A stretch of DNA of 64,000 nucleotides from Escherichia coli (GTDB taxonomy: Bacteria > Pseudomonadota > Gammaproteobacteria > Enterobacterales > Enterobacteriaceae): assembly GCF_041248615.1 (NCBI RefSeq), contig NZ_CP158426.1; one strand, given 5' to 3'. The notes under the pieces were generated by a model. The model searched no databases. It saw only the letters and a program-made list of their open reading frames with translations, and was not told the DNA's origin. Made by a program: the position numbers and the translations under genes. Shown one piece after another: positions 43,808 to 43,823 of the stretch (the stretch's first letter is position 1; every line of letters begins with the position of its first letter).

Positions 43808-43823
43808 TGTGAATGAACTCACA
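43808..43823. promoter_or_regulatory. CRP-like palindrome upstream of ygfK
   Basis: TGTGA-atgaac-TCACA, a perfect match to the CRP core half-sites, ~55 bp upstream of the candidate -24 element. Confidence 0.4.

Follow-up and report, generated by a model that had tools for sequence, protein, structure and literature searches.

What does a perfect binding palindrome for CRP, the receptor protein of cyclic AMP (cAMP), do upstream of a promoter that is read by sigma-54 RNA polymerase? The region upstream of ygfK in Escherichia coli raises this question, as it holds the sequence TGTGA-N6-TCACA between mocA and the sigma-54 promoter of the operon ygfK-ssnA-ygfM-xdhD. We analyzed a stretch of 64,000 nucleotides (hereafter, the window; RefSeq assembly GCF_041248615.1, contig NZ_CP158426.1) that contains a selenium/molybdenum-linked urate/purine catabolism cluster: uacT, ygfT, xanQ, guaD, xdhD-ygfM-ssnA-ygfK, mocA, yqeCB, arcC-hyuA-ygeY-dpaL-ygeW, ygeV, and xdhABC. 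The ygfK operon and its neighbors are responsible for anaerobic uric-acid degradation by gut bacteria, which is studied for its relevance to host urate and gout. Our analysis indicates that the palindrome is very probably a true CRP operator. With moderate confidence, we further propose that cAMP-CRP acts there as a DNA-bending co-activator of a promoter served by sigma-54 and the enhancer-binding protein YgeV.

A preliminary description of this DNA had located the palindrome at 43808-43823 and suggested catabolite control, or DNA-bending co-activation, of the ygfK operon by CRP. The location is exact: the CRP core is matched at 10 of 10 positions, and the perfect core is present in a single copy in the window. 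The edge of this site (“box 1”) lies 152 bp upstream of the ygfK ATG. When the window was shuffled with its dinucleotide composition preserved, a mean of 0.09 perfect cores was obtained per 64 kb, with at least one in 8 of 100 shuffles, and the chance of finding one within the 320-bp mocA-ygfK spacer is roughly 5e-4. The 401 bp around the palindrome are 100% identical to K-12 MG1655 and many other strains; elsewhere, the window differs from MG1655 at a few bases, e.g., in the ygfT promoter.

As a CRP site, the palindrome is already known, having been a published CRP target since 2011. Using genomic systematic evolution of ligands by exponential enrichment (SELEX) with cAMP-CRP, Shimada et al. 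(2011) found that 9 of 160 sequenced clones carried the ygfJ>ygfK spacer, which ranked third among 29 loci, in an experiment in which clone number was said to track affinity and enrichment required cAMP. The spacer was recovered by SELEX-chip too, and ygfK was named among the novel predicted CRP targets. Their table of CRP boxes lists for ygfK-ssnA the exact 16-mer TGTGAGTTCATTCACA plus TGTGAGGCGGCTCGAA 30 bp away, as well as TGTGATCAACCCCACA for the ygeV<>ygeW spacer and TGCGACTGAGTTCAAA for ygfT<>ygfU. More recently, a 2025 preprint on the urate pathway mentioned a “native Crp-binding site” between ygeV and ygeW and reported repression of urate degradation by glucose in wild-type E. coli, an effect that had been suspected in an earlier preprint. 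A Reg-Seq preprint includes ygfK among its targets, without a reported result.

To this record we add the conservation of the site. We retrieved 80 ygfK orthologue loci and aligned 36 upstream regions from Enterobacterales/Morganellaceae. The two half-sites of box 1 carry 1.33 and 1.56 bits per position in these 36 promoters, compared to 0.61 for the N6 spacer and 0.33-0.64 for the flanks. More than a dozen spacers are found, including GTTCAT, GATCAT, GATATT, GATAAT, GCTTAT, ACTTAT, AATAAT, GCTATT, AGTGTT, GGCTCC, and GCCTGT. The first T of the left half is variable (T/C/G) and GTGA and TTCACA are retained; this nGTGA/TCACA pattern corresponds to the positions that CRP reads most strongly. Within E. 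coli, a 28-base exact-match search showed the 30-mer around box 1 to be essentially identical in 4675 of the ~5170 genomes carrying the region, and the same 30-mer with the spacer variant of the cryptic clades had no match in RefSeq complete E. coli genomes. In five E. coli strains sampled across the identity range, all polymorphisms lie between conserved blocks, sparing both box 1 and the second box described below.

The position of box 1 has to be read against the correct promoter. On the ygfK strand, the sequence CTGGCAAGAGTGGTGCGATTGTTGCT holds two overlapping -24/-12-like motifs, and the true ygfK promoter is TGGTGCGATTGTTGC, 10 bp downstream of the look-alike TGGCAAGAGTGGTGCG. Chromatin immunoprecipitation sequencing (ChIP-seq) of sigma-54 by Bonocora et al. 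(2015) yielded a peak here (OS31), which was assigned the motif GTGGTGCGATTGTTGCT, at 43745-43729 of the window. All 36 aligned upstream regions retain TGG[T/C][G/C][C/T]GAWTGTTGC (TGG-N8-TTGC), at 1.69 bits per position, whereas the TGGCAA of the look-alike is restricted to Escherichia sequences, other genera having unrelated bases there. The preliminary description had put the palindrome about 55 bp upstream of the -24 element; this distance fits the look-alike, which was probably the element meant, and has to be revised, as the true -24 TGG begins 64 bp from the palindrome edge. Measured from the -12 C (43730), the center of box 1 is 85.5 bp upstream, or at about -97.5 relative to the inferred start site. 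Escherichia is peculiar in having two overlapping sigma-54-like motifs 10 bp apart, only the downstream one of which is conserved in other genera.

A second CRP-like site (“box 2”) is centered 55.5 bp from the -12 C, at about -67.5, so that box 1 lies exactly 30 bp upstream of it; the same 30-bp interval is found in every species having both. The half-sites of box 2 carry 1.7-1.8 bits per position. Its distribution is wider than that of box 1, extending over Enterobacterales, Aeromonas, Vibrionaceae, Shewanella, and Erwinia/Pantoea; among the orthologous ygfK upstream regions, it is absent from three beta-proteobacterial metagenome-assembled genomes (MAGs), Ferrimonas, and Brenneria. For the spacing, we took the -12 C as the reference point in 74 orthologous promoters and searched the region 30-120 bp upstream of it for a perfect GA-N6-TCAC. 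Matches were found at 55.5-57.5 bp (52), 66.5-68.5 bp (13), 85.5-87.5 bp (30), and 97.5-98.5 bp (2), and at no other distance within this range, in counts that are not independent events since the species are related. The GA-N6-TCAC boxes thus share one helical face. Insertions of 11-12 bp, i.e., about one helical turn, between box 2 and the promoter in Morganella morganii, Aeromonas australiensis, and several Vibrio and Photobacterium have shifted the box from 55.5-57.5 to 66.5-68.5 bp, and no lineage has an intermediate distance. These independent one-turn insertions are a stronger argument than the raw counts. As the stretch separating box 2 from the -24 element is poorly conserved (0.45 bits per position) while its length is fixed, it is the distance, rather than the sequence, that is under constraint.

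The same arrangement recurs within the cluster. Three further promoters, those of xdhA, ygeW, and ygfT, were identified as sigma-54-dependent by Bonocora et al. (2015), and the CRP-type boxes of the four E. coli promoters (ygfK, xdhA, ygfT, ygeW) are centered at 55.5, 55.5, 56.5, and 65.5 bp from the -12 position. If as many as 2 mismatches are allowed, the window contains 36 CRP-type boxes, about one per 1.8 kb; the matching offsets at the sibling promoters are far beyond chance, even allowing for the post hoc choice of offset. Like ygfK, each sibling combines a sigma-54 promoter and a CRP-type box with palindromes of the type TTMTCA-N3-TGAKAA further upstream; unlike ygfK, which alone has a perfect palindrome and a second box, each has a single box, that of ygeW alone being near consensus. 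Three base differences from MG1655 fall in the ygfT promoter region (28700-28740), one of them inside the published sigma-54 motif (TATGCCCATTTATTGCA versus TATGCCCGTTTATTGCA in MG1655). Two of the boxes recall well-studied sites: the ygeW box shares the 12-mer GTGATCAACCCC with what we take to be the classical ilvB CRP site, and the ygfT box TTTGAACTCAGTCGCA presumably resembles the distal CRP site of deoP2.

Expression data are available for the siblings. Comparing a cyaA crp double mutant to wild type at the same growth rate, Li et al. (2018) found ratios of 0.12 for ygeV, 0.20 for ygeW, 0.23 for xdhA, 0.35 for xdhB, 0.39 for xdhC, and 0.41 for yqeB. In their electrophoretic mobility shift assays, promoter fragments of ygeV/ygeW and of xdhA shifted with Crp-cAMP, and the xdhA site that they predicted is the box found here at 55.5 bp. 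From the reduced expression of xdhA, ygeW, and ygeV in the mutant, together with the repression by glucose, we infer that the effect of CRP at ygfK is positive.

The activator of these promoters is likely to bind further upstream. TTMTCA-N3-TGAKAA, with at most 1 mismatch, occurs 4 times in the window versus 0.45 expected, and none of 100 shuffles reached 4. All four matches lie in regulatory DNA of the cluster (upstream of ygfK, ygfT, and ygeW, and within yqeC upstream of yqeB), with weaker copies upstream of xdhA and ygeW; one such palindrome, TTCTCATATTGATAT, has the same sequence at ygfT and at ygeW. In the four E. coli promoters, this candidate upstream activating sequence (UAS) lies at distances between about 119 and 222 bp from the -12 position, a variability to be expected of an enhancer. 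Upstream of the ygfK promoter, the palindrome is strongly conserved in the alignment of 36 sequences and is also conserved in Aeromonas, Vibrio, Photobacterium, Shewanella, Erwinia, Pantoea, a Rhodocyclaceae MAG, and a Comamonadaceae MAG; the taxa that retain it include some without box 1 and two beta-proteobacterial MAGs with neither box. YgeV (53930-55708) contains PAS, Sigma54_activat (7.6e-71), and AAA_lid_14 domains and a Fis-type helix-turn-helix (HTH_8), and it was previously proposed as an activator of the cluster gene set; in the literature searched, we found no publication on a YgeV binding site or binding data. By its enrichment, conservation, and variable distance, the palindrome is likely the YgeV enhancer site. 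Two more conserved blocks, b and c, contain half-sites resembling those of this palindrome and may be further YgeV sites. Block c, unique in the window, ranks among the best-conserved blocks upstream of ygfK, and ATTCTCATTT/ATACTCATTT-like sequences are found in Vibrionaceae, Shewanella, and Erwinia as well.

Two observations concern the neighboring yqeCB. The 3' end of yqeC holds a perfect enhancer-type palindrome, TTCTCAATGTGAGAA (45303-45317), and a CRP-like box with one mismatch, TATGAATATTTTCACA (45476-45491), overlaps the start codon of yqeB, a gene reported to be activated by Crp-cAMP (Li et al. 2018).

We propose the following mechanism for ygfK. When glucose is absent, cAMP-CRP would occupy box 1 in the cell, and probably the weaker box 2 as well. 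CRP bends DNA sharply. The boxes, separated by 30 bp, face roughly the same side of the helix and keep a constant distance to the -24/-12 element; their combined bends would fold the upstream region back onto the promoter. Such folding could bring the ATPase YgeV, presumably bound at its TTMTCA-N3-TGAKAA-type sites between about -120 and -200, onto the closed complex of the sigma-54 holoenzyme. CRP would then take the role that IHF has at many sigma-54 promoters, and the operon would come under catabolite control. The suggestion of the preliminary description that CRP exerts catabolite control or co-activates by bending is in this respect supported by the SELEX binding, the conserved half-sites, the phased distance, the crp-dependent siblings, and the repression by glucose.

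The helical phase is informative about the likely sign of the effect. By our estimate, -67.5 and -97.5 are about half a turn off the class I positions (-61.5, -72, -82.5, -93), at which CRP shares the face of RNA polymerase, with the caveat that the start site was taken from the -12 GC and is known within 1-2 bp. At glnAp2, CRP is recruited to the polymerase face by contact of its activating region 1 (AR1) with the C-terminal domain of the polymerase alpha subunit (alphaCTD) and blocks the activator, which must approach from the unbound face. With the ygfK boxes on the face opposite to that of class I sites, the bend would therefore steer the enhancer to the accessible face.

Several points weigh against CRP being a bending co-activator of ygfK. 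Dependence on crp is shown for the sibling operons only, and it could be indirect, wholly or in part, through ygeV. We found no CRP occupancy in vivo for ygfK in the accessible literature, including the ChIP-exo supplement of Latif et al. (2018), which lists only the mocA transcription unit, in a table that is not interpretable as CRP binding; nor did the accessible literature contain a base-resolution CRP footprint of the ygfK site. The genes ygfK, ssnA, and xdhD are missing from the carbon-limitation and crp-mutant tables of Li et al. (2018), probably due to a requirement for anaerobiosis plus inducer. Most of the CRP effects that have been studied at sigma-54 promoters (glnAp2, dctA, Pu, nif) are inhibitory. 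As for the boxes themselves, the flanks of box 1 and its positions 9/14 mismatch the 22-bp CRP consensus, so that about 12 of 22 positions agree overall (counted by eye against the textbook consensus), and box 1 is lost or degraded in 5 of the 36 sequences (K. oxytoca, Enterobacter genomosp. O, R. terrigena, and two Cedecea species) and is therefore dispensable where box 2 remains. The distal half of box 2 (TTnGA) departs from the consensus and does so even between distant lineages, which may point to a different protein; such a half would suit a CRP site that is deliberately weak, but likewise a different protein of the CRP/FNR type. The relatedness of the species behind the spacing counts belongs here as well.

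The first alternative accepts CRP at the boxes and reverses its sign. CRP would serve as an anti-activator that holds the closed complex or bends the enhancer-bound activator away, so that cAMP would lower ygfK expression. This would agree with the published CRP effects at sigma-54 promoters, which act mostly by AR1-alphaCTD contact and altered geometry, and with the fact that ygfK, ssnA, and xdhD are not among the genes raised by carbon limitation (Li et al. 2018). However, the siblings xdhA and ygeW, whose boxes agree in kind and in offset, are lower rather than higher in the cyaA crp mutant, glucose represses rather than stimulates the pathway, and the boxes appear to be on the face opposite to the one from which alphaCTD would be contacted (within the uncertainty of 1-2 bp). 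We consider an inhibitory role unlikely.

In a second alternative, a little less likely still, another protein uses the boxes in vivo, such as YgeV or a member of the CRP/FNR family, e.g., FNR, and the binding of CRP in vitro is incidental. Many enhancer-binding proteins recognize TGT-N10-12-ACA, the TGT-N10-ACA of the NifA/FhlA type being a superset of TGTGA-N6-TCACA, and two sites 30 bp apart look like tandem enhancer sites. For FNR, the distal halves of box 2 and of the Photobacterium box 1 are TTGA-like, i.e., nearer to an FNR half-site, and the pathway is anaerobic. The enhancer role, however, is better fitted by the separate, better-conserved palindrome, which is enriched in each of the cluster's regulatory regions and is retained even without CRP-type boxes. 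A fixed, quantized distance from the promoter is likewise unusual for enhancer sites, in contrast to the variable distance of the candidate UAS. For these two reasons, we regard the reading of box 1 as a NifA-like YgeV enhancer as unlikely. Both halves of the Enterobacterales box 1 are of the CRP type (GTGA/TCAC) rather than TTGA/TCAA, and the experimental binding of CRP is strong in SELEX, with Crp-cAMP shifting the xdhA and ygeW fragments.

It is improbable that CRP at the palindrome acts in class I or class II fashion on a sigma-70 promoter, be it a second promoter of ygfK or a divergent or antisense one. Escherichia does have a TATATT hexamer at 43771-43766, but CRP has no canonical position at about -56 or about -27, where box 1 and box 2, respectively, would lie relative to it, and the hexamer is conserved only in Escherichia, Citrobacter, and K. 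indica. A consensus scan also returned a weak promoter-like sequence on the plus strand, CTCACA-16-TAAAAT at 43818-43845, although its score of 9/12 is at chance level (1 found versus 1.2 expected in shuffles) and it points into mocA in antisense. By consensus scan and alignment, there is no properly spaced or conserved sigma-70 -10/-35 pair on the ygfK strand, and the conserved feature is the spacing to the sigma-54 element. That the palindrome arose by chance and is functionless is effectively refuted: shuffled windows do yield a perfect core at times and a few are expected per whole genome, but the half-sites are conserved around a free spacer across several families of Enterobacterales, along with the 30-bp partner and the phasing, the 30-mer is unchanged in thousands of E. 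coli genomes, and the spacer was strongly recovered in SELEX.

With CRP favored as a co-activator, the closest known parallel is prpBCDE of E. coli and Salmonella, which is likewise catabolic, is transcribed from a sigma-54 promoter (ChIP-seq peak OS01), and has an enhancer-binding ATPase, PrpR, encoded in its cluster. RegulonDB, as reproduced by Shimada et al. (2011), annotates CRP as an activator at -103.5 of this sigma-54-dependent promoter, versus about -97.5 at ygfK. The prpBCDE site matches the consensus poorly (TAACTGAAACGCATAT) and also serves the divergent prpR promoter, whereas the core at ygfK is perfect, has a partner box 30 bp downstream, and involves no divergent gene. At glnAp2, dctA, and Pu, CRP also acts near a -24/-12 promoter, and the geometry of enhancer and promoter decides the outcome. 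There, in contrast to ygfK, the effect is negative and CRP is recruited by alphaCTD or acts without a good site; ygfK has a strong conserved operator and sibling promoters that are activated by CRP. Sigma-54 promoters bent by IHF, such as Pu and nifH, resemble ygfK in that a bend site separates the UAS from the -24/-12 element at a fixed and helically phased position, the bend at ygfK being predicted. IHF sites at sigma-54 promoters are typically centered at about -50 to -70. By eye, we found no convincing IHF consensus in the ygfK upstream region, including block c and box 2. At ygfK, the bender would instead be CRP, which would make the bend dependent on a metabolic signal, and in Enterobacterales there would be two bends.

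More tentatively, the comparison across species can be extended. A CRP-type box near -67.5, or a helical turn beyond it, could be an ancient and obligatory element of YgeV-dependent sigma-54 promoters across CRP-containing Gammaproteobacteria, a signal-gated substitute for IHF, to which Enterobacterales would have added the perfect palindrome three turns upstream for a CRP-dependent U-turn through which an enhancer about 200 bp away could contact the promoter. If this were true, enhancer looping itself would require cAMP, and these promoters would provide a natural and conserved example of CRP in a positive, architectural role. The CRP/sigma-54 cases described in detail in the accessible literature are inhibitory, with prpBCDE solely an annotated activator site. 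The quantized, conserved two-box architecture and the candidate YgeV motif are not described in the literature searched; they are an incremental rather than a surprising advance. Nevertheless, a strong, conserved CRP operator phased with the sigma-54 promoter would account for glucose shutting the pathway off, and it tells strain engineers which DNA to replace. The ygfK promoter is also a natural setting in which to study how contact between enhancer and promoter may be gated by a DNA bender that depends on a signal.

Table 1. Features of the ygfK upstream region and of the sibling promoters, in coordinates of the window
Feature	Position	Strand	Sequence	Remarks
ygfK coding sequence	40558-43656	-		first gene of the operon ygfK-ssnA-ygfM-xdhD, served by the promoter studied
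Sigma-54 -24/-12 promoter of ygfK-ssnA-ygfM-xdhD	43730-43744	-	TGGTGCGATTGTTGC	GG 43743-43742, GC 43731-43730; inferred start ~43718
Sigma-54 look-alike	43738-43753	-	TGGCAAGAGTGGTGCG	overlaps the real promoter, shifted 10 bp upstream; probably the -24 element of the preliminary description
CRP-like box 2	43778-43793	-	TTCGAGCCGCCTCACA	promoter-proximal half strong, distal half weak; second CRP box in Shimada et al. (2011)
CRP box 1	43808-43823	+ (as read)	TGTGAATGAACTCACA	perfect TGTGA-N6-TCACA; reads TGTGAGTTCATTCACA on the ygfK strand
Conserved block c	43830-43848	-	GTGATTTTAATTCTCATTT	ends 6 bp upstream of box 1; TTCTCA half-site; 1.42 bits per position
Conserved block b	43890-43902	-	ATTTTGAGAAAAG	TGAGAA half-site, like the UAS half; 1.36 bits per position vs 0.33 flanking
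Candidate YgeV enhancer (UAS) palindrome	43913-43927		TTATCATAATGATAA	consensus TTMTCA-N3-TGAKAA; center ~-202
mocA	43978-44556	-		same strand as ygfK
ygfT CRP-like box	28673-28688	+	TTTGAACTCAGTCGCA	center 56.5 bp from the -12 C of TATGCCCATTTATTGCA (28722-28738); in Shimada et al. (2011)
ygeW CRP box	53604-53619	-	TGTGATCAACCCCACA	center 65.5 bp from the -12 position of CTGGCACACTTATTGTT (53561-53545); in Shimada et al. (2011)
xdhA CRP-like box	59515-59530	-	TTTTAACGTCATCACA	center 55.5 bp from the -12 C of CTGGCGTAAATCTTGCC (59482-59466)
TTMTCA-N3-TGAKAA-type sites	43913-43927; 28543-28557; 53761-53775, 53732-53746; 59600-59614, 59579-59593; 45303-45317

Two other identities for these sequences were considered and set aside. 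The E. coli palindrome TTATCATAATGATAA partly resembles a Fur box, but other genera carry TTATCATTGTGATAG or TTCTCATATTGATAG at this site, and the resemblance is not conserved. An RNA element at the CRP palindrome was rejected, as no Rfam family matches the locus, the 5-bp hairpin is weak (-4.9 kcal/mol, z -1.25), and the spacer contains no terminator-like site. Elsewhere in the window, Rfam matches comprise a Sib RNA (2874-3024), the 6S RNA (ssrS; 3673-3856), and a tRNA gene (60659-60729), which are unrelated to the palindrome.

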